Positions 4,323 through 64,000 of a stretch of DNA of 64,000 nucleotides are shown here, piece by piece. Location of the stretch: positions 363,878,001-363,942,000 of the forward strand of contig NW_027362769.1 of NCBI RefSeq assembly GCF_046119375.1, given 5' to 3'. Origin of the DNA: Phyllobates terribilis. Lineage: Eukaryota. Made by a program: the position numbers and the translations under genes. The notes under the pieces were generated by a model. That model ran no database searches, had not been told where the DNA came from, and saw nothing but the letters and a program-made list of their open reading frames with translations. Numbering within the stretch: the stretch's first letter is position 1; each line of letters starts with the position of its first letter.

Positions 4323-5560
4323 TGTGGCGCCCCTGAGGGTTCAGTCGCCACAGAGGTACTGCACCTCAACCAGAGGTGTGGTATCTCCTTCTCTCAGGTA
4401 AGGAGGGAGTGCTGCCCGGAACCCCAACACCCACATTCAACACTACACTGCTCCAGGCCGGCTGGAGGGGCAACATGCATTCGCAAAGCTGAACCCTGTC
4501 CCTGGCTGGAGTGGGGGGGAACCCAGAGGTAGGGGGAATCAGTAGTGGGTGTGGGTGGAGGAAATAGTTTAGAGGAGCACCATTACAGGAGGTATATAAA
4601 AAGGGAAGCCATCTTAGGGTGGCAGTGCAGTAGAGCTCAGTGAGTGAGGGAAATCAGTCTGGGAGCAGAGGTTCTTTAGGAGCTCTGCTCCACAAGTAGG
4701 GCCCAGTCCTAGAGGCCCAGGAGGGGAGCAGATGAGTAGGCTCCGATCTACAGAAGGGATCCTAGGGAGTACGGCGAGTGCAGGACGGCACCCGTACGTC
4801 CCGAATCTGTCAGAAGACAGAGGGATCGTAGGCCGCAAGAAGGGGACCGGCCCCTGGTCCAGCCGTGTTACTCTAAGTCTCGGCTGGGAAAACCGGAGGC
4901 TTCTGGCTTATATAGTCAGTTGCCGAAGCCTCATTCTAATCCCCGTGAGGGTCAAGCAGGTCCGGGAACTCCAACAAGACAGGAGGGACTTCAGAGCACC
5001 CGAGCAGGATTGAGAGTGGGGAAGCGCAGGGCAGGAGGGAGAAAGACCCAGCGTGAACACAAGAAAGTGGGGATCTGTCAGGTGCTTCAAATCTGCCTGA
5101 CAAAGAGCTGAACCACTGCCTGGTGAATGCAGAGCGACGTGGGAGGCTAGCACCCGTACAGTGCACCAGTGGAACTGTCATAAGAACTGTGAGTAAAAAC
5201 TCAGATGACTGCACCGTACTGCCTCCGTCCATTCTTTCATATGCGCCCTCTTGCCTCCTGGCACTACAACGCCCAGAGCAAGTTACACTACCTACACTGC
5301 CCTGGAGCTAAGCTCTACCTGTGGAGAGCCACACCATCCCTGCTGCCGTAACACCAGCTCCAGAGGACTGCTCTGCAGCGGCGGCTCCCTTTAGCCGCAT
5401 TCCACAGGTGGCGTCACGAACACTGCAGAAATCCCCTATAAATATTACCCCCCTTTTTGGTGACCGCCCTGGGCCACGGACCGGGCCAGCCACCGTGATA
5501 TCCCCCACCAGCATCCATAGGCCCGGCTGCCGAGTACCCCACGGCTCTGGGGGCGCGTCA
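4323..5560 (+). mobile_element. Solo LTR (1238 bp), Gypsy-like, related to the 6665-15168 element
   Basis: TGTGGCG...GGGGGCGCGTCA termini; flanks CAAC/CGAC (4-bp TSD, 1 mismatch); TATA-like GGTATATAAAAA near 4591; AGTAAA 5192-5197; last 12 nt GGGGGCGCGTCA shared with the LTR ending at 7906. Confidence 0.88.
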
Positions 5561-6052: not shown

Positions 6053-6664
6053 CATGACATGTATATATTCACTTCTTCTCCATCATGTCTCCAGTGGCAG
6101 TGGTGGGGCCTGGTGTTTGCAATCAGCAGCAGAGGATGGGCTGTACGCAGGAGAGCTGTCAGCCCTGCAGTGTCCCTAAATCCCCTTCCCATCTCCCCTA
6201 GTCCCGACTGCAGAGCTGCTGGTGACTTTGCATGAGCCCCCTCCCATCCTGTAATAACAGCAGCTACAGATGGGAGAGGCTGAGGGTCTCCCCCCTCACC
6301 TCAGGACAGCACCTTGTTGTCATGTCCTCCGCAGACTTGGCCCCGCCCCCTGTCCCCTCACCTCCTCATGCTGTGCGGTCTCTCTGCACAGTAGAATTCC
6401 TCTGCACTGATGCCGGGGAGGAGCAGGGAGCGGGAGGCGGAGCTACAAGGAGTCACACACAGCATGGAAAGTCTGCATGTCTGGAAAAAAAAAGCCCAGT
6501 GCCTAGCAACGCCCCTGCCGGGAGAAGAGCTGAGCCGGGACGGGACTGAGCCCTCAAATCGGGCCAGGCCCAGGGAATAGGGGAGGGTTGTTAGCTATGG
6601 ATATTATACCAGCCTCCTATTATTCTGTGTATAATATGGGATGTCTGTGCCTATAGTATATATA

Positions 6665-7906
6665 TGTAGCACCCTGAGGACTCGGCTGCTACAGGGGTAT
6701 TACACCTCAAGCCAGAGGTGTGGTATTCCACTCCCGGGTAAGGATGGAGTGTGGAACTGAGCTCAGATAGCTGCATATACTACATACATCCCATTTCCGG
6801 GGGACAGATCGACGGTACTCCCACCAATATATGTGCAGGTACGATAGTGTCTGTCCCTGGCTGGAGTGGGAGGGGGGTGGAACATCCCAGTAGTGTAGGG
6901 GCAGATAGGGGGAGCAGTCTGGGTAATGCTAGGAGCTCATTGGGTGCTGGTCACCTGAGCTCACACATAGAGGGAGTATATAAGGTGGGCACCATCTTAG
7001 ATCAGGGTCAGTCTTTTGTAGTGTGAGTCAGAGGAGCAGAGCAGAGAAGCTCAGCCAGAAGGGCTGACAGGGAGTTGTGGTTCCGGCTGGGCCCAGCTCC
7101 AAGGCCAAGTCTGAGAGAGAGAGAGAGGAGTCAGAAGGACCCAGAGAGAAGAAGAAGGAACCCCAAGACCCCAGAATACAAACAGCAGGGTGAAGGGTTG
7201 GCACCCAGGGTACCGGATCCCAAGCTGGCAGAGAGAAAAGCACACCTTAGCCAGAGACCGGAGGTCGTGGGCAGGATCTGCCACGACCCTCACTAAATCC
7301 ACTAGGAAGGCATACCAAGTATAGGGTCAGGGAACCCAGAAGAGGTGTACCCACCAAGAGACCCGAGGGAGCCGGACATAAGTGGATCCCTAGTGAGAAC
7401 GGCCAGAAGAGAGGGAAAGTCAGACAGGAGCTCAGGACCACGCTCCAGAATTGCTTGGGGGTTGGCCGAGTCCAGGACCTGGTGGACGCAGCACAGCTCG
7501 GGTGGTCGCTTCAGGCCAGAGTGACCATAAGAACACCCGTAAGTAAAAACCCCTGAACTGCACAGCCCGACTCTGAGTCTTCTTGCTTAGCTCTCCTGCA
7601 CCTTCACAACCACCATCCTCTACATCTGACCCCCTGAGGCTATACCCCTCCCGTTGGGGGTTATACTACCACAGCGGCACACATACCACCAGCCTCAGCA
7701 GACCCTTCTGCAGCGGCGGCCTTTTGACCGCAAATCAACGGGTGGCGTAGTCGACACTAAGAACACCAATAACATCTATCAAGACTGCCACACACTGAGT
7801 TTGACACCCTGGGCACGGACCGGGTCGCCGCCACTCGGAGACTACAACCCCCATCTGATCCGGCTCCGGGTAATCCCCAAACAGCACTGGCCCAGGGGGC
7901 GCGTCA
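6665..7906 (+). repeat. LTR1 (1242 bp)
   Basis: TGTAGCACCC...GGCGCGTCA; TATATAA near 6977; CCATCTT; AGTAAA 7542-7547; near-identical to 10296-11537 and 13927-15168. Confidence 0.95.
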
Positions 7907-7910
7907 ACTT

Positions 7911-7929
7911 TGGCGTAGTCGGCAGGATT
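7911..7929 (+). promoter_or_regulatory. Primer-binding site, tRNA-Ser (AGA/TGA type)
   Basis: TGGCGTAGTCGGCAGGATT, 4 nt after the LTR, is the reverse complement of the vertebrate tRNA-Ser 3' end ...AATCCTGCCGACTACG-CCA (recalled sequence). Confidence 0.9.
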
Positions 7930-8023
7930 TCGTGCCCGCAACCACCGGGTACTGCGTGCCTGAAGAAAAGTTCCAAATTTACCTCAAGAAGAAGTTTCCC
8001 GCCGGTTCCAGAGGGTCCCCGCC

Positions 8024-9829
8024 ATGGGACGCCATCACGGATCGTTTCCCGCCGGTTGCCCGCCATCTGCAGCTTTTTCCCGCCATTTCCAGAAGATTTC
8101 CCGCCTTGGAAGAGCGGACGCCATTATGGGCGTGCCAGAGGGTGGCAAGAGGTCACCTCCCATCGTGGGCCAGGTCAAGGAATGGCGCCAAAAGCGGAAA
8201 CCGCCCCCACCAACGGAGACTGTGATGCTGGAGATGTCCATCAGCGTGAGAGAACTGCCCCTGGAACTGACAATCACAAAGTTGCCCCGGGACCACCTTC
8301 AATGTGGGCGGAGACAGAACAAGAGAGAGAAGATGGGTGCAGCCTGGAGGAGTCTGGAGAGAGCGCACCCGGAGACAAGAAGTCTGGAGAGGACTCCGGA
8401 GAAGCCGTACCCGGAGATGGAGGGAGAGGCAGGCAGCACCGACCCAGTGGTCAGGAGCCTGTTGCAAGCGACAACCCCAGAAGGCCTGGTGGAGATCCTG
8501 GCACAGCTCCCCCGAGACCGGGAGCGTGCACAGACCGCACTGGAGGGCTTGGCTCAGAGGATGGCCCGAGTGCAGCGGGACGTACTGGCCGCATGGAGCA
8601 GAGAGATGGCCCAGCAGGCTGGAACCCGCCAGCGAAGCACGCCACCCGAGACGAGGAGACAGACCGCCTCTGAGGATGGTGCAGGAGGAGTGAAGGCCGG
8701 AGACGGCGCCGAAGAGGGAGCTGAACAGATGGAGGCAGGTAAAGGGGACGTCACTACCCCGAGCCGAGAAACCGCGTGCCTGCCCCAGCTCCCCGTCGCA
8801 GAGCCCGAAATTCCCCCTGTCGTGCCCGTCGCTGCATCGTCACCGCTCCAGACAAGGCCTCAAGCAGAAGCCGCGGCCGCGACCCCTGTGACGTCACGCG
8901 CCTCAACCCTGAGCGCGGCAAAGCAGGAAACACCACCGGCCTGGTCGCAAGGTCTAGTACCCCCGGGCGCCGCAGTACCAACAGCGCCCTCTACCTCCAC
9001 TGAGCCACCGGCCTGGTCGCTGGGCCAAGTAACCCCGGGCGCCGCCGTCTTCACGGTGCCCTTTACGTTCAGGGTACCCCAGGCCTGGTCGCAAGGCCTG
9101 GCGAACCCGGGCGCCGCCACCACCACCGCGCCCTCAACATCTAGAGTGCCGCACCTGGGTGAAGATTTGTTTGCCCAGCACACGTGCCCGGATGGGCAGC
9201 CCTTTGTGTGGCCACCGGAGTTCCACCATCCCCGACTCCGGAAAGAAAGACCCCTAGATGAGCCCCTGATTCCGGTTCCGAAGCCCGTTAAGATCACCCC
9301 ACTCTCGTTGGAGGAAGCGCAGTTTGCGTGGGACCCCACCGGAGGAGACCTCATGGGATTCACCCAAGAGACTCGGGCAGCCGCAGCTGAGCGTGCGGAG
9401 TGCTGCCGGCAGCAGTTAGAGGTCTTTGACCGCGAGCGAAGAGAGAGGCGGGTCCGAGAGCAGCGGCTGCAGGAACAGAGCGCAGGGCAGAAGAGCAGGA
9501 CCAGGAGGAACCCCCGTGCAGCCCACGGTCCCCGTGCCACCGGGACTGTAATTAAATTCCAACTGCAGCACGGTTGGGGTTTCATCAGGGATCATCACAC
9601 CCCCGGCGACGTCTTTGTCACCCGCAGAGACGTGGAGTCCCATCTGCCGGAGGGACACAGAGGTCGTGACCTATATGTAGGGGACGAGGTCACGTTCACC
9701 CGGCACAAGTGTGCCAAAGGACCCTACGCCCTCCATGTACACCGGCTGACGGAGGAGGAGCTACGGTGTGAAGAGGAGCAAGAGGATCCGGACGGGTCTG
9801 AAGGAGGAGCAGGAGTACGCCGTCATTAA
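8024..9829 (+). CDS. 601-aa element-encoded protein with C-terminal cold-shock domain, copy 1
   Basis: Uninterrupted ORF with strong Kozak (GCCATGG); residues ~505-575 match the CSD pattern; preceded by a charged helical stretch and three ~24-aa repeats. Confidence 0.85.
   Translation: MGRHHGSFPAGCPPSAAFSRHFQKISRLGRADAIMGVPEGGKRSPPIVGQVKEWRQKRKPPPPTETVMLEMSISVRELPLELTITKLPRDHLQCGRRQNKREKMGAAWRSLERAHPETRSLERTPEKPYPEMEGEAGSTDPVVRSLLQATTPEGLVEILAQLPRDRERAQTALEGLAQRMARVQRDVLAAWSREMAQQAGTRQRSTPPETRRQTASEDGAGGVKAGDGAEEGAEQMEAGKGDVTTPSRETACLPQLPVAEPEIPPVVPVAASSPLQTRPQAEAAAATPVTSRASTLSAAKQETPPAWSQGLVPPGAAVPTAPSTSTEPPAWSLGQVTPGAAVFTVPFTFRVPQAWSQGLANPGAATTTAPSTSRVPHLGEDLFAQHTCPDGQPFVWPPEFHHPRLRKERPLDEPLIPVPKPVKITPLSLEEAQFAWDPTGGDLMGFTQETRAAAAERAECCRQQLEVFDRERRERRVREQRLQEQSAGQKSRTRRNPRAAHGPRATGTVIKFQLQHGWGFIRDHHTPGDVFVTRRDVESHLPEGHRGRDLYVGDEVTFTRHKCAKGPYALHVHRLTEEELRCEEEQEDPDGSEGGAGVRRH
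9536..9748 (+). other. Cold-shock domain (OB fold) coding segment, copy 1
   Basis: TGTVIKFQLQHGWGFI (RNP1-like) ... GDVFVT (RNP2-like) ... LYVGDEVTF ... AKGPYALHV parallels CspA TGIVKWFNADKGFGFI...DVFVH...LDEGQKVSF...AKGPAAGNV. Confidence 0.88.
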
Positions 9830-10286
9830 AGTACGGTAAAGAGACTGTATATAGTTACCCGTCAGGGTATAAGAACTGTTACTGCTGCTAGTTAAAATAT
9901 AGTCCCCGTTGGGACCAGCAAATTGAACTGAAACCCGTGTGTCCCTATTCCCACTGACCGAGGACTGAGAGCGGTCATTCCTTTCCTGATACCTGGCCGA
10001 GGACTGAGAGCGGCCATACCTTCCCTTGTATATAGTTGCGCTTTCTAAGGCGCCCCCTACCGGTTTATAGGAAACTGTTGTTTTTACTACAAGAGACTGT
10101 CGCACTTTACCCGGTCACAAGTTGCACCGTGGCCGGAGGAACAAGAGTGTTATTTATGAAAAGCTTTATATGAAAAGTTTATGCTGATAATATATGATGT
10201 TTTATATGTTTATGTTTTATGAAATAAAATGTATGTTTGTGGATGTTTATGTTCTCTTACAGCCCGAGGACGTGCTGTGATTTACC

Positions 10287-10295
10287 AGGGGGGAA
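10287..10295 (+). promoter_or_regulatory. Polypurine tract
   Basis: AGGGGGGAA immediately before the TG of LTR2. Confidence 0.85.
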
Positions 10296-11537
10296 TGTAG
10301 CACCCTGAGGACTCGGCTGCTACAGGGGTATTACACCTCAAGCCAGAGGTGTGGTATTCCACTCCCGGGTAAGGATGGAGTGTGGAACTGAGCTCAGATA
10401 GCTGCATACACTACATACATCCCATTTCCGGGGGACAGATCGACGGTACTCCCACCAATATATGTGCAGGTACGATAGTGTCTGTCCCTGGCTGGAGTGG
10501 GAGGGGGGTGGAACATCCCAGTAGTGTAGGGGCAGATAGGGGGAGCAGTCTGGGTAATGCTAGGAGCTCATTGGGTGCTGGTCACCTGAGCTCACACATA
10601 GAGGGAGTATATAAGGTGGGCACCATCTTAGATCAGGGTCAGTCTTTTGTAGAGTGAGTCAGAGGAGCAGAGCAGAGAAGCTCAGCCAGAAGGGCTGACA
10701 GGGAGTTGTGGTTCCGGCTGGGCCCAGCTCCAAGGCCAAGTCTGAGAGAGAGAGAGAGGAGTCAGAAGGACCCAGAGAGAAGAAGAAGGAACCCCAAGAC
10801 CCCAGAATACAAACAGCAGGGTGAAGGGTTGGCACCCAGGGTACCGGATCCCAAGCTGGCAGAGAGAAAAGCACACCTTAGCCAGAGACCGGAGGTCGTG
10901 GGCAGGATCTGCCACGACCCTCACTAAATCCACTAGGAAGGCATACCAAGTATAGGGTCAGGGAACCCAGAAGAGGTGTACCCACCAAGAGACCCGAGGG
11001 AGCCGGACATAAGTGGATCCCTAGTGAGAACGGCCAGAAGAGAGGGAAAGTCAGACAGGAGCTCAGGACCACGCTCCAGAATTGCTTGGGGGGTGGCCGA
11101 GTCCAGGACCTGGTGGACGCAGCACAGCTCGGGTGGTCGCTTCAGGCCAGAGTGACCATAAGAACACCCGTAAGTAAAAACCCCTGAACTGCACAGCCCG
11201 ACTCTGAGTCTTCTTGCTTAGCTCTCCTGCACCTTCACAACCACCATCCTCTACATCTGACCCCCTGAGGCTATACCCCTCCCGTTGGGGGTTATACTAC
11301 CACAGCGGCACACATACCACCAGCCTCAGCGGACCCTTCTGCAGCGGCGGCCTTTTGACCGCAAATCAACGGGTGGCGTAGTCGACACTAAGAACACCAA
11401 TAACATCTATCAAGACTGCCACACACTGAGTTTGACACCCTGGGCACGGACCGGGTCGCCGCCACTCGGAGACTACAACCCCCATCTGATCCGGCTCCGG
11501 GTAATCCCCAAACAGCACTGGCCCAGGGGGCGCGTCA
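10296..11537 (+). repeat. LTR2 (shared middle LTR)
   Basis: LTR1 + 3631 bp; preceded by a PPT and followed by a PBS. Confidence 0.95.
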
Positions 11538-11541
11538 ACTT

Positions 11542-11560
11542 TGGCGTAGTCGGCAGGATT
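11542..11560 (+). promoter_or_regulatory. Primer-binding site, tRNA-Ser (second unit)
   Basis: Identical to 7911-7929. Confidence 0.9.
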
Positions 11561-11654
11561 TCGTGCCCGCAACCACTGGGTACTGCGTGCCTGAAGAAAA
11601 GTTCCAAATTTACCTCAAGAAGAAGTTTCCCGCCGGTTCCAGAGGGTCCCCGCC

Positions 11655-13460
11655 ATGGGACGCCATCACGGATCGTTTCCCGCCGGTTGCCCGCCATCTG
11701 CAGCTTTTTCCCGCCATTTCCAGAAGATTTCCCGCCTTGGAAGAGCGGACGCCATTATGGGCGTGCCAGAGGGTGGCAAGAGGTCACCTCCCATCGTGGG
11801 CCAGGTCAAGGAATGGCGCCAAAAGCGGAAACCGCCCCCACCAACGGAGACTGTGATGCTGGAGATGTCCATCAGCGTGAGAGAACTGCCCCTGGAACTG
11901 ACAATCACAAAGTTGCCCCGGGACCACCTTCAATGTGAGCGGAGACAGAACAAGAGAGAGAAGATGGGTGCAGCCTGGAGGAGTCTGGAGAGAGCGCACC
12001 CGGAGACAAGAAGTCTGGAGAGGACTCCGGAGAAGCCGTACCCGGAGATGGAGGGAGAGGCAGGCAGCACCGACCCAGTGGTCAGGAGCCTGTTGCAAGC
12101 GACAACCCCAGAAGGCCTGGTGGAGATCCTGGCACAGCTCCCCCGAGACCGGGAGCGTGCACAGACCGCACTGGAGGGCTTGGCTCAGAGGATGGCCCGA
12201 GTGCAGCGGGACGTACTGGCCGCATGGAGCAGAGAGATGGCCCAGCAGGCTGGAACCCGCCAGCGAAGCACGCCACCCGAGACGAGGAGACAGACCGCCT
12301 CTGAGGATGGTGCAGGAGGAGTGAAGGCCGGAGACGGCGCCGAAGAGGGAGCTGAACAGATGGAGGCAGGTAAAGGGGACGTCACTACCCCGAGCCGAGA
12401 AACCGCGTGCCTGCCCCAGCTCCCCGTCGCAGAGCCCGAAATTCCCCCTGCCGTGCCCGTCGCTGCATCGTCACCGCTCCAGACAAGGCCTCAAGCAGAA
12501 GCCGCGGCCGCGACCCCTGTGACGTCACGCGCCTCAACCCTGAGCGCGGCAAAGCAGGAAACACCACCGGCCTGGTCGCAAGGTCTAGTACCCCCGGGCG
12601 CCGCAGTACCAACAGCGCCCTCTACCTCCACTGAGCCACCGGCCTGGTCGCTGGGCCAAGTAACCCCGGGCGCCGCCGTCTTCACGGTGCCCTTTACGTT
12701 CAGGGTACCCCAGGCCTGGTCGCAAGGCCTGGCGAACCCGGGCGCCGCCACCACCACCGCGCCCTCAACATCTAGAGTGCCGCACCTGGGTGAAGATTTG
12801 TTTGCCCAGCACACGTGTCCGGATGGGCAGTCCTTTGTGTGGCCACCGGAGTTCCACCATCCCCGACTCCGGAAAGAAAGACCCCTAGATGAGCCCCTGA
12901 TTCCGGTTCCGAAGCCCGTTAAGATCACCCCACTCTCGTTGGAGGAAGCGCAGTTTGCGTGGGACCCCACCGGAGGAGACTTCATGGGATTCACCCAAGA
13001 GACTCGGGCAGCCGCAGCTGAGCGTGCGGAGTGCTGCCGGCAGCAGTTAGAGGTCTTTGACCGCGAGCGAAGAGAGAGGCGGGTCCGAGAGCAGCGGCTG
13101 CAGGAACAGAGCGCAGGGCAGAAGAGCAGGACCAGGAGGAACCCCCGTGCAGCCCACGGTCCCCGTGCCACCGGGACTGTAATTAAATTCCAACTGCAGC
13201 ACGGTTGGGGTTTCATCAGGGATCATCACACCCCCGGCGACGTCTTTGTCACCCGCAGAGACGTGGAGTCCCATCTGCCGGAGGGACACAGAGGTCGTGA
13301 CCTATATGTAGGGGACGAGGTCACGTTCACCCGGCACAAGTGTGCCAAAGGACCCTACGCCCTCCATGTACACCGGCTGACGGAGGAGGAGCTACGGTGT
13401 GAAGAGGAGCAAGAGGATCCGGACGGGTCTGAAGGAGGAGCAGGAGTACGCCGTCATTAA
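11655..13460 (+). CDS. 601-aa CSD-containing protein, copy 2
   Basis: Intact ORF; 4 amino-acid differences from copy 1 (G/E, V/A, P/S, L/F); CSD identical (13167-13379). Confidence 0.85.
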   Translation: MGRHHGSFPAGCPPSAAFSRHFQKISRLGRADAIMGVPEGGKRSPPIVGQVKEWRQKRKPPPPTETVMLEMSISVRELPLELTITKLPRDHLQCERRQNKREKMGAAWRSLERAHPETRSLERTPEKPYPEMEGEAGSTDPVVRSLLQATTPEGLVEILAQLPRDRERAQTALEGLAQRMARVQRDVLAAWSREMAQQAGTRQRSTPPETRRQTASEDGAGGVKAGDGAEEGAEQMEAGKGDVTTPSRETACLPQLPVAEPEIPPAVPVAASSPLQTRPQAEAAAATPVTSRASTLSAAKQETPPAWSQGLVPPGAAVPTAPSTSTEPPAWSLGQVTPGAAVFTVPFTFRVPQAWSQGLANPGAATTTAPSTSRVPHLGEDLFAQHTCPDGQSFVWPPEFHHPRLRKERPLDEPLIPVPKPVKITPLSLEEAQFAWDPTGGDFMGFTQETRAAAAERAECCRQQLEVFDRERRERRVREQRLQEQSAGQKSRTRRNPRAAHGPRATGTVIKFQLQHGWGFIRDHHTPGDVFVTRRDVESHLPEGHRGRDLYVGDEVTFTRHKCAKGPYALHVHRLTEEELRCEEEQEDPDGSEGGAGVRRH

Positions 13461-13917
13461 AGTACGGTAAAGAGACTGTATATAGTTACCCGTCAGGGTA
13501 TAAGAACTGTTACTGCTGCTAGTTAAAATATAGTCCCCGTTGGGACCAGCAAATTGAACTGAAACCCGTGTGTCCCTATTCCCACTGACCGAGGACTGAG
13601 AGCGGTCATTCCTTTCCTGATACCTGGCCGAGGACTGAGAGCGGCCATACCTTCCCTTGTATATAGTTGCGCTTTCTAAGGCGCCCCCTACCGGTTTATA
13701 GGAAACTGTTGTTTTTACTACAAGAGACTGTCGCACTTTACCCGGTCACAAGTTGCACCGTGGCCGGAGGAACAAGAGTGTTATTTATGAAAAGCTTTAT
13801 ATGAAAAGTTTATGCTGATAATATATGATGTTTTATATGTTTATGTTTTATGAAAAAAAATGTATGTTTGTGGATGTTTATGTTCTCTTACAGCCCGAGG
13901 ACGTGCTGTGATTTACC

Positions 13918-13926
13918 AGGGGGGAA
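13918..13926 (+). promoter_or_regulatory. Polypurine tract (second unit)
   Basis: AGGGGGGAA before LTR3. Confidence 0.85.
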
Positions 13927-15168
13927 TGTAGCACCCTGAGGACTCGGCTGCTACAGGGGTATTACACCTCAAGCCAGAGGTGTGGTATTCCACTCCCGGG
14001 TAAGGATGGAGTGTGGAACTGAGCTCAGATAGCTGCATACACTACATACATCCCATTTCCGGGGGACAGATCGACGGTACTCCCACCAATATATGTGCAG
14101 GTACGATAGTGTCTGTCCCTGGCTGGAGTGGGAGGGGGGTGGAACATCCCAGTAGTGTAGGGGCAGATAGGGGGAGCAGTCTGGGTAATGCTAGGAGCTC
14201 ATTGGGTGCTGGTCACCTGAGCTCACACATAGAGGGAGAATATAAGGTGGGCACCATCTTAGATCAGGGTCAGTCTTTTGTAGAGTGAGTCAGAGGAGCA
14301 GAGCAGAGAAGCTCAGCCAGAAGGGCTGACAGGGAGTTGTGGTTCCGGCTGGGCCCAGCTCCAAGGCCAAGTCTGAGAGAGAGAGAGAGGAGTCAGAAGG
14401 ACCCAGAGAGAAGAAGAAGGAACCCCAAGACCCCAGAATACAAACAGCAGGGTGAAGGGTTGGCACCCAGGGTACCGGATCCCAAGCTGGCAGAGAGAAA
14501 AGCACACCTTAGCCAGAGACCGGAGGTCGTGGGCAGGATCTGCCACGACCCTCACTAAATCCACTAGGAAGGCATACCAAGTATAGGGTCAGGGAACCCA
14601 GAAGAGGTGTACCCACCAAGAGACCCGAGGGAGCCGGACATAAGTGGATCCCTAGTGAGAACGGCCAGAAGAGAGGGAAAGTCAGACAGGAGCTCAGGAC
14701 CACGCTCCAGAATTGCTTGGGGGTTGGCCGAGTCCAGGACCTGGTGGACGCAGCACAGCTCGGGTGGTCGCTTCAGGCCAGAGTGACCATAAGAACACCC
14801 GTAAGTAAAAACCCCTGAACTGCACAGCCCGACTCTGAGTCTTCTTGCTTAGCTCTCCTGCACCTTCACAACCACCATCCTCTACATCTGACCCCCTGAG
14901 GCTATACCCCTCCCGTTGGGGGTTATACTACCACAGCGGCACACATACCACCAGCCTCAGCGGACCCTTCTGCAGCGGCGGCCTTTTGACCGCAAATCAA
15001 CGGGTGGCGTAGTCGACACTAAGAACACCAATAACATCTATCAAGACTGCCACACACTGAGTTTGACACCCTGGGCACGGACCGGGTCGCCGCCACTCGG
15101 AGACTACAACCCCCATCTGATCCGGCTCCGGGTAATCCCCAAACAGCACTGGCCCAGGGGGCGCGTCA
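13927..15168 (+). repeat. LTR3
   Basis: LTR1 + 7262 bp; followed by TATA (TSD) rather than a PBS; TATA box altered (GAATATAA). Confidence 0.95.
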
Positions 15169-17735
15169 TATATATTATACCACATACAGGCTAATATGTA
15201 ACTAGTGCACATTACACCATGAGTACAGACATTAGATATTACACCAGTCACGTATTATCCTCTACAGCTCTTTAATATCTGTGGCGCTATTGTCCCCGCC
15301 GATCCTACCACAGACCGAATAATGCTACTGTCACACGATCAGTATTTTGTCAGTCTTTTTCTTGAGTATTTGGAAGCCAAATCCAGATGAGGAGCAATCA
15401 GAGAAAAGGTATAATACATACCAGTGCATATATTCTGCATTTATCACTCTCCTGGTTTGGCTTACAAATATGGATAGTGAGACCATATCCTCACATAATC
15501 TACCAGCAGCCTGATGGGTGTTATGCCGGGGTCTTAGTGCACAGGACCCGGTCATTACACGGCGTCCATCTACAGCTGGGACATTTCCTGTGAACACTCG
15601 CTCTCCCCTATCACCCGCACGGGTCTGATCCTGAAGATCTCATGTATCAGAATCCAGTTGTTCATCCCAAGATAGTTTGTATTTATCATCTGCCACATAA
15701 TGGATGAGTGGGACCGAACTCAGCATGGGCTGGGGGAGCAGACAAGGCACCAGTATAATTCAGGGGTGAATAAGCAGACACACGGCCACTGAGGAGTTAA
15801 ATGGAGGAAATACTTGTATCCGGTATTGGTCGGTGCCTGAGGATGTCTGTCAGTCATTGGCTGATCACAGATCCGTTGGTGATTTTGAAATTCCCGCTCA
15901 ATCGTTGTTCTTTGTCCTCCGGATTATTTATTAACGACTCCTGTTAATAGCGGAGATCGCAATTTGAGCAATCCGGTCTGGGGGCAGCTCTACCCCGCTG
16001 AGAATACAGGGTCCTCTCCTCCAGAGCGGTCTGCCCCCGAACAAATGTGATCGTTCTCCTGATTGGCAGGTGGAGGATGTGCCGGCCTTGTTATTATTCT
16101 GGGAGGTTATTATCCTTTTGAGGCCGCCATCCATCCGAGACTCCAGTGCCCAGGACGCGGTCATCACACAGACGTCCGTATTCCGGCTACACAGGGCGTC
16201 CATCCAGCTGCCTCATACGGACACATTCCCTGCGAGTATTCGCTGCCTCTACAACACAATCGTATTTGATCCTGTTAATATCAAGATCAACACATTCATC
16301 TGACTGCAGTATGATAGGATTTCTGCTGTGTATTAATCGCAGCACAGAGAGCTATGTACTGTGTGCACAGAGGTATCTATCATGTATGACATTGCTGCAG
16401 AGTTATGACTTGGTGACAGATTGCAAATGTCAGAAACTTCTTACTGCTGTCCATGTTTCTGCTGTATCATTTATTCTCTACAATCTGCATTAGAAACATA
16501 ATTTATTATACATATAATGATAGAAAAGGATCCAGAACCAAGATCTCATCTCATCCGTCTTCCTGATTGAGCCCAGCCGCTAATATCTCCCCATATCCTG
16601 CAGGAACAACAACCTGTAAGAGGCGGCAGCTGCACTGACAGCACAGAGGCCACTTCTCCCCGGGGAGACTTCATCTTCTTACAATCAGATTGGTGATCGG
16701 AGCTCTCTGCACTTCCGCAGTGATTTAATCTTATAGTATATTAACACTTTTCTTTCCAGACTACTAAAGTCCTCTGATCTTTTATGGACTTACTATTTTC
16801 ATCGTTGTTATTATACAGATGGAGATTGATGCTCAGATCTGAGTCTTATTGTTTGTTTTCTCAATGTGTCACCGAGATCCCCTATATTCGTTATACATCG
16901 CTACATCTGGTATTAGAGGAAGTTATCTAGAGATTGTATTGGGATATTTCTCCTCTTAACAAGGGATTCATTGTTCTCCTCTTCATTCTTGGAGCTTCTA
17001 CATGTGGATATATTGCCCGAGAGCCGCCCGTCCTGACACTGGATAAAGGGGAGGAGGACAAGTGAAAGAGCAGAAGAACGAGCAGTAACGGAGCAGGAAT
17101 CTATAGAAAAGGAATAAAGCTCCTGTGAGGGTGTGATGACCGATAACCTAACTGCATGTCTGACCTATGGGATCCGGACAACAGTGTAATTTTCTGAGCA
17201 ATCTGCAATACATGATCGTACATGTCCTGTCACACACTTCCTCCCTGTAGCTGTACAATTGATCTGTACATGAATTACTGGATTAAACTACTGGGGAGAT
17301 GATCGGGGGGATATGGTGGGGTCAAAGCAGAATTGGTCTTCCCTGAAATATCGCATGTAGGATGCGTCCCTGGCTAGTATATCGTATAAAGGGAGGTCAG
17401 ACACACGGGGCACATCACAGCTTTTGGCTGATTCACTCTATATATCTATGAAAGGAAACCGAAGCATCCCTGACCCCGGGTCTTGTATTATAGAAAGCGG
17501 AGACTGCTCAACTAAAATCTCCAGACTCCTGTATGGGATGTAAACGACCAATATAAGTCGGTCATAGAACCTCGTGTTATATGGGGACAAAGAACAGAAA
17601 AGCCATCAGCCACTGAGCGGGAACTTCAAACTCATGGACAAAAAGTCACGTGACCTGTGTAAGCTGCGCCCGCTGCGTCTTATTGGTGTTTCCACACGTC
17701 TGCTCTCCATTGGCGGCTTCAGATCCATCCAATGA

Positions 17736-33471: not shown

Positions 33472-34481
33472 TGACTTGCCCCCTGAGCCGTGGGGCACCC
33501 GGAACCGGGCTTTAGTGCGATGATGGGGGTAGTAGTGGCAACCCCATCCCGTGGCTCAGGGTGGTCAGACCAAATGCTGTGGCAGTCTATTTGTAGAGTT
33601 ATGAATGTCCGACTACGCCACCCGTGGGTTGCGGTCAGGGATGACCGCCACTGCAAGGCAGACCGCTGATGCTGGTGTGCAGCACAGGGATAGGATAACT
33701 CCCAACGGGAAGAGTGTAGCCTCAGGGAAGCGTATGTGAATGCTGGTGGTGATAGTGCAGGCCGCAATAATAAGAGTTCAGAATCCGCTTCAAACAGTCC
33801 AGGGTCTTTATTGTAGGTATTACTAATGACCCGACAGGAGTACCGGGTAGGAATGGGCCTGGGTGTCTGAGAGCATTCGGGCGAGCCCCACTGGTCAGGG
33901 TGAGTGTGAAGGCCTACCGTTCTCACTCTGCCCTTGCTGACTATCCCCCTTTTCGTGGTGTAATAGCCCACGTCCCTGAGCTGGCCATGTACTTCGCCTG
34001 TATGGCTTGCGACTCGGGCCTTGGGTACCTTTTGCTTCCTCGTGCTGTACCGGTCCCTCTGTGTGGCGGAGCCTCCAGGCTTCTTAGGCCAAGGGACCTG
34101 AAATCCCTCGCGGGTTGGTTCTCTGCTGCTGGGCTTGCAACCCTGACAGCCTCGGACCCCAATGTCCGTTGGTGTAGTTCTCTCATCCAGAACCGGCTCT
34201 CGTCACCTCTGTCCCTGGCTCGCAGCTTCTCCTCTGCCTCACGGACTCCTTGGCTACAGCTGAACTGTCCCTCCTTCTCTGGGACTAGTCTCAGTCCTGA
34301 GCTAGGTCGTCCAGTTCTCTCTAACCCTGCCCTCAGTTCCAGCTTTTATAAGGGCAGCCAGCTCCACCTACTGGCCTGGGACAGGAGGTGCTGTATGCTA
34401 ATTGTCCCTGACCAGGGAACCTAACTCCTGCTCTCAGACACAGCCTATAATATTTGTGGCATCCAGGCCTGGGGTGACACA
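33472..34481 (-). mobile_element. Solo LTR (1010 bp) of the same lineage, minus strand
   Basis: Minus strand TGTGTCACCCC...GGGGGCAAGTCA; CCCC TSD (33468-33471 and 34482-34485); empty paralogous site at 47902-47905; TATAAAA, AATAAA (33807-33812). Confidence 0.9.
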
Positions 34482-60837: not shown

Positions 60838-63714
60838 TGTGGCACCCCTGAGGGTTCGACCGCCACAGGAATGCTGCACTTCTCTAATGGAGTGTAGTGT
60901 TCCTCCTCTGAGGTAAGCCCGGTGTGATGGTCGCGACCCAGCCTTGCATCCAACACCACACTTCTCCACCAGAGGGAGCTAGTATGCACTAGGTGTTGCT
61001 CCCCTGGTTACAGGGAGACTGGGGAACACAAAGTGGTAGGAACCAGTTAGTGGGTGTGGGTGGAGGACTTACAAGTTAGTTACACCTTAAATTTCATATT
61101 TAATAGAAAGCCATCTTTGATCTTGGTCTGTTGTTCTTCTCTGGTCCTTTGTCTAGCCCAGGGGTCCTCAAACTTTTTAAACAGGGGGCCAGTTCACGGT
61201 CCCTCAGACCATTGGAGGGCCGGAATATAGTTTTTAAAAAAAACTATGAACAAATTACTATGCACACTGCACATATCTTATTTTGTAGTAAAAAAAACAA
61301 TACAGGAACAAATACAATATTTAAAATGAAGAACAAGTAAAGTTAAATCAACCGGTATTTCAATAGGTAGGTAACTGTACCCAATAGGCAGCATAGGTCC
61401 TCAATAGGCAGGTAAATGTCCCCAATAGGCAGCATCGGTCCTCAATAGGCAGGTAAATATCCCCAATAGGCAGGTAAATGTCCCCCATAGGCAGGTAAAT
61501 GTCCCCAATAGGCAGCATAGGTCCCCAATAGGCAGGTAAATGTACCCAATAGGCAGCATAGGTCCCCAATAGGCAGGTAAATGTCCCCAATAGGCAGCAT
61601 AGGTCCTCAATGGGCAGGTAAATGTTCCAAATAGGCAGGCTGTTTCCCCCTTATAATGCCATATGCAGGCTGTTCCACCCCTTATAATGCCCCATGCAGG
61701 CTGTTCCCCCCCATATAATGCCCCATGCAGCATGTCACCCCCCCATATAATGCCCCATGCAGCATGTCACCCCCCCATATTATGCCCCATGCAGCATGTC
61801 ACCCCCCCATATTATGCCCCATGCAGCATGTCACCCCCCCTATATTATGCCCCATGCAGGATGTCACCCCCCATATAATGCCCCATGCAGGATGTCACCC
61901 CCCATATAATGCCCCATGCAGGATAACACTCCCCTGTCTTTATTATACCCCATGCAGCATGTCACCCCCCACATATAATGCCCCATGCAGCATGTCACCC
62001 CCCATATAATGCCCCATGCAGCATGTCACCCCCCCAATATAATGCCACATGCAGCTTGTCACCACCCCCATATAATGCCACATGCAGCATGTCACCCCCC
62101 CCATATCATGCCCCATGCAGGATGTTTACCCCCCCCATATTATACCCCTTGCAGCATGTCACCCCCCCATATAATGCTCCATGCAGGATGTCACCCCCCA
62201 TATCATGCCCCATGCAGGATGTCACCTCCCCATATTATACCCCTTGCAGGATGTCACTCCTCCATATAATGACCTATGCCTCCATACATTAAAAAAAAAA
62301 AAAAAATCCAATACTCACCTCACTTCTCACCTGCTGCCGCTGCCGCTGCCCTACTCTGGTCTGGACTCCAGCGTCGCGGCGGCGTCGTCCCGCTCTGCGC
62401 TGCCTGTGACGGCACTCGGGAGGGCGCGGTGTAAAGACGTCACCGCATCCTCTGACCTGAGACGTCACAGAAAGCGCAGAGCAGGAAGACAGCGGATCTG
62501 CAGAGGCACAGGGAGAGGTAAGTATCCGCCTGCCGGGGCCCTGAGCAAGCGGGGGAGAAGGGCGGGTGCTGACACCGCTCCCCTCTCCTCCACCCATAGC
62601 CCGGCGGGCCGGATAAAAGTCCTCCGCGGGCCGCATGTGGCCCGCGGGCCGTAGTTTGAGGACCCCTGGTCTAGCCTTTGCTAGTCTGTCGGCTGTGTCT
62701 GTGCGGTCAAAATACTGTGTGCAATGTGACCTCCCTCCGGGAGCGCAGATCCTATGTGGGCCTGCGCCGGTAAGGGACACAGCCCTCGTACCCTGGCCTT
62801 GGGACGAGAGGTAGGTTGTAGACAAGGAATGTCTCAACCCGGCCAAGGACCAGGATCAAGAAGGCCCTGGGAGCTTTAGAGTGTGGCTCCCCAGCAAATG
62901 GGTCCCGGGGAGGATGCAGACGGAGCGGAGCACGCCACCTGTCATCGCCTACCTGATCTATTCAGAGGGATTCCGGCTGCAAGAGGGGTACCGGCCCTCG
63001 ACACCCGACCTTGTACTCTATGTTCTGGACGGGAAAGCCCGGTTAGGCCCTGAGGATCCCACCGGGCATCGGATGGAGAGGAATTGCCATCCGTGCCCTA
63101 GTCCTGAGAGGAGCTCAGAGGGAGACCCGGCCTATCTACACACGCACAGACGGGAAAGGGTGAAGTTTATAGTGCAGGAACACTCTGGTGTAGGGTCGCT
63201 ACCGAACACTGGACTTTCTCGGAGGTAGTCGGACCCCCGTCCCTGGTGGCCGCAGGACTCCGCGGGGAGCAGGGAGTCGCCTTCCCGCTGACATCTCTAA
63301 GTGAGTAAAGCCTTGGAAGTTCACCCCTATGGCCTCTGGAGTGTTCATTACGCGCCATACCATGCGACGCGGTGCCCGTACTCCCCGCACTACTACCCCC
63401 TCTCTTTCCTGTTTGCCTGCCCTGAGGCCTTGCTCCGCCTGTGGGGAGCAGCGAGAACTTTAGCCGCCATGACACCGGGCCTCAGCGGACTGCAGCGGCG
63501 CTGGTGACCCTTCACCAGGCACCACAGGTGGCGTAGTCGTTAAAATAAGCCACTCAACCCGGACAAGCCCACAGCATCTCTTTCTAATGTGACGGCCCTG
63601 AGCACGGGTCGGGCCTAGGCCACGGCTGCATCCCATCTCTCCATCACAGGGCCCGACACCGAGTCCCCCATCACCCAGGGTAAAACATGGGTTTCTCTGA
63701 GTAGAGGCGTCACA
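60838..63714 (+). mobile_element. 5' LTR (~1.36 kb net) of a further related LTR element, interrupted by a hAT MITE; internal region runs off the window
   Basis: TGTGGCACCCCTGAGGG start, AGTAAA 63304-63309, ends GGCGTCACA, followed by a PBS. Confidence 0.82.
61159..62668. mobile_element. Non-autonomous hAT (Charlie-like) MITE, 1510 bp
   Basis: 16-bp TIR CAGGGGTCCTCAAACT/AGTTTGAGGACCCCTG; 8-bp TSD GTCTAGCC (61151-61158 and 62669-62676); internal minisatellites. Confidence 0.93.
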
Positions 63715-63717
63715 ACC

Positions 63718-63735
63718 TGGCGTAGTCGGCAGGAT
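63718..63735 (+). promoter_or_regulatory. Primer-binding site, tRNA-Ser
   Basis: TGGCGTAGTCGGCAGGAT, 3 nt after the LTR end. Confidence 0.88.
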
Positions 63736-64000
63736 CGCGTGCCCGCAGCAAAGGAAGAAGTGCCCATTGCTATCGGGTACTGTGTGCCTTACACCTTGAA
63801 CTGTTGTTTACACTTAAAATGGCGCCCGCCCAAGAAGAACAGACGCCATAATGCTGTGAAAAACTGTCTTTGAACACCTCCCATCGTGGGCTGGGCTCCC
63901 GCTTGGCGCCAAAAAGGTGGACTGCCCCTTCCATCAGAGACTGTCCGCGGGGTAATGCCCGTCAAACTGGATGGGCTGAACAAAGGCGGGCCTGTCAGCA

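Follow-up and report, generated by a model that had tools for sequence, protein, structure and literature searches.

A non-autonomous LTR retrotransposon of Phyllobates terribilis whose only open reading frame carries a conserved cold-shock domain

The window analyzed here is a stretch of 64,000 nucleotides from the 10.57-Gb genome of the poison frog Phyllobates terribilis (contig NW_027362769.1, positions 363,878,001 to 363,942,000). It carries an insertion of a long terminal repeat (LTR) retrotransposon whose single open reading frame (ORF) encodes a protein with a cold-shock domain (CSD) near its C-terminus. The element is a non-autonomous LTR retrotransposon of the Ty3/Gypsy type that has kept the cis signals of an autonomous clade primed by tRNA-Ser, and its protein is under purifying selection, which is strong in the CSD. 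Because these cis signals are shared with an autonomous family, here called family E, and both families are young, the element is very probably mobilized in trans by the Gag-Pol of family E or of a sister family.

Architecture and spread of the insertion

The insertion spans positions 6665-15168 and has the order LTR-internal-LTR-internal-LTR, that is, two units with a common middle LTR and a period of 3631 nt. An earlier note on this DNA had given the element the range 6665..10295, which was right as to its presence but not its extent, since that range covers one LTR and one internal region only. The three LTRs are 1242 nt each with TG..CA ends and differ pairwise at 4, 4 and 2 of 1242 nt; between the two internal regions there are 7 differences over 2389 nt. 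The LTR, tRNA-Ser primer binding site (PBS), polypurine tract and 4-bp target site duplication (TSD) claimed in that note are all present, with the TSD bracketing the whole tandem and not a single unit:

6661..6664, plus strand: left TSD (TATA)
6665..7906, plus strand: 5' LTR, 1242 nt, TG..CA
6979, plus strand: TATAA in the 5' LTR, putative promoter element
7542, plus strand: AGTAAA in the 5' LTR, putative polyadenylation signal
7609..8109, plus strand: block of U5, PBS and leader common to autonomous Gypsy family E, candidate priming or packaging signal
7743..7753, plus strand: second tRNA-Ser-complementary 11-mer, in U5, 168 nt upstream of the PBS
7830..7845, plus strand: segment with pairing potential towards the 5' strand of tRNA-Ser or towards the U5 11-mer/PBS
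7911..7928, plus strand: PBS for tRNA-Ser(AGA/TGA)
10287..10295, plus strand: polypurine tract adjoining the second LTR
10296..11537, plus strand: middle LTR, common to both units
11538..13926, plus strand: second internal unit, with intact ORF at 11655-13460
13927..15168, plus strand: 3' LTR
15169..15172, plus strand: right TSD (TATA)

The host genome has tRNA-Ser(AGA/TGA) genes, and the PBS at 7911-7928 is complementary to their 3' end. Taken alone the TATA duplication is weak evidence, the site being TA-rich. Twenty fetched regions held 14 other complete multi-LTR copies, after exclusion of a split tandem on contig C2 and one copy without a 3' LTR; all 14 are flanked by 4-bp TSDs of varied sequence, with LTR pairs 99.4-99.8% identical, and 2 of 3 solo LTRs in the same regions also have a TSD. 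The element has thus spread recently by true integration. Tandems recur elsewhere, with two units in L019 and three in L011-L012, and an 11-kb LTR pair on C2 that was considered as a longer element resolved into a three-unit tandem.

The group to which the element belongs is large, with tens of thousands of candidates at first look and five or more families whose LTR context is shown or likely; the candidate totals that follow are such first-look counts and not copy numbers. The window element represents family A1. A search with its LTR gave 4309 candidates, 40 of which were scored and were all 97-100% identical, and a search with the C-terminal 129 aa gave 38,308, of which the 150 scored were all 98-100% identical. 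For the sister family A2 (P0001, whose source names Phyllobates terribilis) 97 of 97 scored matches were at least 97% identical. Family B (12,405 candidates) begins at the right end of the window, family C is represented by a solo LTR at 4323-5560, and family G (L196) has 1-kb LTRs 3.6 kb apart, a Ser PBS and no pol. LTR pairs lie 3.2-3.7 kb apart in each of families A1, B and G.

Relatives of the protein, known as protein records only, occur in Ranitomeya variabilis, R. imitator, Anomaloglossus baeobatrachus and Bufo bufo, those of B. bufo being annotated as 'Y-box-binding protein 2-A-like'. Four NCBI gene models (P0133, P0134, P0089, P0135) have the CSD fused to R3HCC1 in P. terribilis or to a serine protease in B. 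bufo, or are named YBX2-A-like, and may reflect misannotation or exonization. The CSDs of L191/L198 and L193/L197 belong to a Bufo-like clade; no LTR pair or PBS was detected near them, the searched distance being 7-7.5 kb for L193 and L191. At 364.3-366.6 Mb of G000:C9, near-identical copies of the insertion (L005, L007, L131, L132) are found next to copies of the solo LTR of family C, an arrangement that suggests a segmental duplication there; of L131 only a solo LTR is left, flanked by the same TATA TSD.

The protein and its conservation

The ORF reads 601 aa from its first ATG. Of the earlier description, an intact 601-aa ORF ending in a CSD, the ORF and the domain stand, while the length is probably too great, the likelier start being Met35 at 8126 (about 567 aa). 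At the first-ATG position ATG is found in 10, ATC in 5 and no matching sequence in 1 of 16 loci picked by their LTR, the first 30 codons overlap the leader common to the autonomous element, and the ATG of Met35 is retained in 18 of 18 loci. The parts of the coding region are as follows:

8024..9829, plus strand: ORF; 601 aa if read from the first ATG, about 567 aa from the likely start codon at 8126 (Met35)
8444..8623, plus strand: N-terminal helical segment, aa 141-200, conserved in families A-C, dN/dS 0.16
8932..9150, plus strand: three 72-nt (24-aa) repeats, predicted disordered Pro/Ala-rich linker
9329..9508, plus strand: conserved GGDLMGF motif and 45-aa charged helix, dN/dS 0.15
9533..9745, plus strand: cold-shock domain, aa 504-574, dN/dS 0.06

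A Pfam scan of the ORF at E<=1 gave PF00313 as its sole match, the family that had been expected, at aa 506-573 (E 1.2e-7, 32 bits against a curated cut-off of 27); among 9 further relatives this domain scored above the cut-off in 5, below it in 3 and gave no match in 1. The AlphaFold2 model, made from an 11-row alignment, has a mean pLDDT of 56; in it aa 504-574 form a five-stranded barrel (block pLDDT 89-96), aa 451-495 a long helix and aa 141-200 further helices, with the remainder disordered. As modelled, the barrel is of the OB type with RNP1 and RNP2 present, and a Foldseek search with it returned CspA, YBX1/2, CRHSP-24, Unr and Lin28. Beyond the CSD the protein has no more than an acidic tail of 25 aa. 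The ESM Atlas gave leads only (best 0.76 and 0.85), and Rfam no match at E<=1.

The N-terminal segment, aa 141-200, had no significant Pfam, PDB or Gag match. It is modelled as three helices, two of them short and one long, and a structure search with this model returned generic helical matches (best Z 5.3, rmsd 7.9, 78 aligned). No capsid fold stands among the listed Foldseek PDB/BFVD or VIA matches, which does not by itself exclude a capsid.

Between the window element (A1) and A2 the dN/dS ratio of the CSD is 0.06 (dS 1.40, dN 0.09, Fisher P 3.5e-16). The motif with its adjoining helix gives 0.15, the N-terminal helices 0.16, the linker 0.40 and aa 36-131 0.51. Towards families B and C the ratio for the CSD is about 0.2, with dS near saturation. 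Within A1 (17 loci picked by LTR), CSD variants found in at least two loci comprise 7 synonymous and 0 non-synonymous changes. A dN/dS near 1 with frequent stops, which the earlier note had named as evidence against its reading, is clearly not what the CSD shows, and 148 of the 150 scored C-terminal copies are free of stops.

As to the affinity of the CSD, a nine-row family profile scored 45 bits against the CSD of YBX1/2, 37 against CspA and 21 against Lin28, and the loop insertion of the element CSD is YBX-like, so that the resemblance to YBX noted earlier is upheld by the profile score. The two aromatic (Phe) RNP positions are conserved. A CSD tree, built from rows without YBX, has two element clades whose joint monophyly is weak (61/63). 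We lean towards a single capture of the domain from a Y-box gene.

Absence of gag-pol and a candidate helper

The claim that the element lacks pol was borne out at two levels. No reverse transcriptase (RT), RNase H (RH), integrase (IN), Gag or CCHC zinc knuckle match was found in the ORF with Pfam, the knuckle of the family E Gag being detected as a positive control. Among 198 loci, which overlap and of which many are short, the CSD was present in 77, gag/pol in 83 and both in 2, the pol of these two lying outside the LTRs; hence none of the 77 CSD loci, many of them with 1.5-kb flanks only, has gag/pol between its LTRs. An 8.7-kb LTR pair of family C, tried as a pol-bearing element, held no pol.

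An autonomous partner with a matching PBS, which the earlier note had proposed to look for, was found in family E, a plausible helper. A pattern search with the 3' end of tRNA-Ser gave 60 matches, and the 20 that were fetched comprised 5 tRNA genes and 15 element PBSs preceded by the CCA complement. Two of the latter (L185, L186) belong to family E, which has 997-nt LTRs, a 4-bp TSD, a Gag with a zinc knuckle (zf-CCHC) and a weak PNMA match, protease, RT, RH and IN, and no CSD. It aligns with window positions 7609-8109, from U5 through the PBS into the leader, with 72% identity over 527 nt (E 1e-63), and PBS, LTR termini and TSD length are common to both elements. Family E is young, as all 104 scored pol matches are 99-100% identical; by hand count about 60 of them have the full 1448-aa frame. 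Their proteins show no similarity: tblastn was empty at E<=1, and hhalign of the N-terminal profile against the family E Gag gave a probability of 0.1%. A Ser PBS at the own LTR was seen in 0 of 15 integrase-picked elements and 0 of 30 PNMA loci.

In 7 of the 15 element loci of the pattern search (L166, L170, L172-L175, L182), one of them in the window family, the PBS runs on into the tRNA for 32-50 nt, in some cases followed by internal deletions; these extended sites are apparently relics of reverse transcription that continued into the primer tRNA. A further young Gypsy family (L096-L098, L109) has a single 1650-aa frame, 1.2-kb LTRs and a different PBS.

The second tRNA site

Families A, B and E are primed by tRNA-Ser(AGA/TGA) and family C by tRNA-Ser(CGA). 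Comparing the type of the U5 11-mer with that of the PBS in 56 PBS rows, many of them near-copies, we found 50 matches, 6 unresolved rows and 0 conflicts, with one concordant row being a duplicated PBS and one unresolved row a U5 site. With columns chosen after the alignment had been seen, a tree of 18 U5 regions with the tRNA sites masked needs at least 2 changes of type (AU p 0.026). A third segment pairs with the 5' strand of the cognate tRNA above shuffles in 3 of 3 family B, 10 of 11 family C and 0 of 4 family A/E rows. The pairing of this segment in the window family is bulged and not significant, and a non-cognate duplex occurs elsewhere in 5 of 11 family C rows. RNAalifold gave no helix between the U5 site and an anti-site, the families aligning out of register. 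Multipart primer contacts have been described for Ty1 and Ty3 in the part of the source drawn on here (PMC4974528), and the tRNA-complementary U5 sites resemble them.

The earlier note had taken the double tRNA site as a pointer to a nucleocapsid substitute. The site itself is real (7743-7753), but it is no argument for such a role, because family E has it together with a CCHC knuckle and without a CSD, and in CSD family G a second site was not seen. The double tRNA site is a property of the Gypsy clade and does not explain the CSD.

Proposed role of the protein and rival explanations

In the mechanism that we propose, element RNA would be packaged, reverse-transcribed and integrated in trans by the helper Gag-Pol. 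The protein would bind in cis the RNA from which it is translated, through the CSD and the adjacent basic helix, and would stabilize and store it as a messenger ribonucleoprotein; its conserved helices would bring this RNA to the assembly sites of helper Gag, and the element would thereby win a larger share of the helper particles. The argument for cis action is one of selection: a protein encoded by a mobile element would be maintained only if its benefit comes back to the lineage that encodes it. Host YB-1 offers the analogy: it co-localizes with Gag and RNA of mouse mammary tumor virus (MMTV) and supports MMTV assembly, and it supports RNA metabolism and virion output of HIV-1 (PMC4486188; PMC6040738), as far as the consulted portions of these reports go. 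The element protein would be a private version of this role, and we judge a cis-acting coat or escort function to be an even prospect. Of the roles suggested earlier for a captured CSD, competition for a helper fits the evidence best, and a nucleocapsid substitute is not supported by the double tRNA site.

Several observations weigh against this reading. Family E is alignable with family A in U5, leader and termini only, and not in U3 or the 3' UTR, so that some other family may be the actual helper. A Y-box gene is no more than the probable donor of the CSD, because single-sequence and Foldseek searches place bacterial Csp level with or above YBX and the tree lacks YBX rows. In the element CSD the Trp before RNP1 of YBX is replaced by Lys and the His after RNP2 by Thr; with these binding-face positions changed, YBX-like binding is not to be assumed, and nucleic-acid binding may differ or be weaker. 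The singleton variants of the CSD are also biased towards synonymous changes (8:8 on 58:170 sites) and thus give no neutral control.

The protein could instead be an anti-silencing or expression factor that shields the RNA from piRNA or tRNA-fragment silencing and from decay, promotes export or translation, or activates transcription through single-stranded LTR DNA. Purifying selection and a very high copy number fit, Y-box proteins stabilize mRNA and regulate transcription, and RNA-handling accessory ORFs are known from LTR elements (Cer1 CERV, orchid AlkB) as far as their descriptions were covered; Gypsy RNA is moreover reported as abundant in O. pumilio ova, in the section of the source used (PMC6278860). 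A diffusible factor would, however, also benefit cheating elements that lack the ORF, whereas a frame of at least 600 aa is retained in 13 of 16 loci picked by LTR, and a factor acting in cis would overlap with the escort role; we regard this explanation as possible, though on balance unlikely. It is quite improbable that the protein acts as a nucleocapsid or Gag substitute whose CSD anneals tRNA-Ser and chaperones strand transfer, either in helper particles or in a capsid-free ribonucleoprotein (RNP) that recruits only helper Pol. Such a role would suit an ORF at the gag position with a helical N-terminus, a disordered linker and a C-terminal nucleic-acid-binding domain, the capacity of CSD proteins to melt RNA structure, and an extended U5 tRNA complementarity that changes with primer type. 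It is opposed by the distribution of the U5 sites in families E and G and by the negative comparisons with the family E Gag, and a protein lacking a capsid domain has no evident route to co-assembly. More doubtful still is the full replacement of Gag, in which helices and linker form a capsid-free RNP or condensate, the CSD serves as nucleocapsid and only Pol is borrowed from an autonomous Gypsy; if true, an LTR lineage spread across hyloid frogs would have exchanged its capsid and zinc-knuckle module for a Y-box domain of the host and so arrived convergently at the design of LINE-1 ORF1p.

Two further explanations concern the origin and beneficiary of the ORF. The element might be a deletion derivative of an autonomous Gypsy with the CSD as accessory ORF, and the small autonomous sample (15 integrase loci, 30 PNMA loci, 2 Ser-PBS elements) and the short flanks of many CSD loci leave some room for it. 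We consider it very unlikely, given the lack of gag/pol between the LTRs of all 77 CSD loci, the LTR spacing of 3.2-3.7 kb in A1, B and G, and the absence of a CSD from both autonomous Ser-PBS copies. That the ORF is a passenger or a domesticated gene, serving the frog or nothing, is hardly credible. The NCBI models described above, some named as Y-box proteins in Bufo bufo and two fusing the CSD to host genes, speak for it, as do the developmental roles of the zebrafish bhikhari Gag in the excerpted report (PMC13269885). A neutral passenger is excluded by the ratio of 0.06, and since the families between which it was determined are dispersed, young and flanked by TSDs, selection acts on the replicating lineages.

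Other features of the window

The region from 17.7 to 52.2 kb holds what is, by sequence likeness, a histone gene cluster (H2A, H2B, H3, H4, H1). CR1-type LINEs occupy about 1.9-3.1 kb and 42.4-46.4 kb, and a 67-nt tandem array extends from 54.7 to 58.2 kb. The family C solo LTR (4323-5560, plus strand) has a U5 site of the tRNA-Ser(CGA) type and lies within a 35-nt satellite; full family C copies elsewhere carry the CSD ORF. At the right end a family B CSD element (60838-61140 and 62689-64000, plus strand, continuing into L013) has its 5' LTR split by an insertion and its CSD interrupted by a CR1-type LINE just past the window. A related LTR (type D; about 33472-34481, minus strand) has a U5 tRNA-Ser site and is 66-72% like parts of the family E LTR.

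Significance and comparison with known systems

A selfish element that lacks enzymes and keeps a strongly selected protein must gain something specific from it, and the domain of this protein is of the RNA-chaperone kind that retroviruses borrow from the host. The group offers a testable model for non-autonomous LTR elements competing for helper particles and for cis preference outside LINEs. It may contribute to the giant genomes of dendrobatids. Surveys based on counts of Pol ORFs or on a 4-kb requirement would overlook its members, as the accessible part of one such survey describes (PMC12822217), and the Bufo relatives are annotated as Y-box host genes.

The earlier note knew of no such element, and no LTR element with a cold-shock domain was found in the full-text literature searched, a scope that leaves aside Repbase, Dfam, subscription journals and supplements. 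'Cold shock' has 0 occurrences in the main text of three frog transposable element papers, the supplements or repeat libraries of which could hold unnamed copies. Apparently, then, this is an undescribed variant of the protein-coding non-autonomous LTR retrotransposons, pol-less LTR elements with a single ORF being already known.

Y-box proteins have a near-invariant CSD followed by a C-terminal tail of alternating basic and acidic stretches, a combination that the element protein does not have. It shares with YBX1 and YBX2 (FRGY2) the CSD fold, RNP1/RNP2 and the loop insertion, but its CSD is only about 30% identical, is altered at the Trp and His positions and lies C-terminal behind a long helix, in an intronless ORF of a mobile element. 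In bdelloid ORF3, orchid AlkB and Cer1 CERV elements a captured domain likewise serves the element, to judge from partial descriptions. These are add-ons to elements with gag-pol, whereas the captured-domain ORF of the window element is its only one.

Closer in organization are 1A11 and Xretpos of Xenopus laevis, LTR elements that lack pol and have a single long ORF according to the part of the source used (PMC4585706), and, likewise from partial accounts, zebrafish bhikhari and crestin; the ORFs of 1A11 and bhikhari are Gag-like, whereas that of the window element has no Gag match and a conserved CSD, a comparison made by description only. The non-autonomous variants of wheat RLG_Sabrina are high-copy Gypsy elements with gag-pro replaced by other ORFs and RLG_Wilma as helper, and dependant and helper have PBS, termini and short motifs in common, in the portion of the report consulted (PMC9744471). 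They differ in plant lineage and in a short, partly capsid-like cargo, with no CSD in that description. The window element and family E likewise share PBS, U5 sites, leader, LTR termini and a 4-bp TSD, although family E has its own gag-pol and CCHC knuckle, no CSD, and a U3 and 3' UTR that do not align; in PBS, termini and timing the two agree on the points by which, in the same excerpt, Wilma and Sabrina were paired (PMC9744471).

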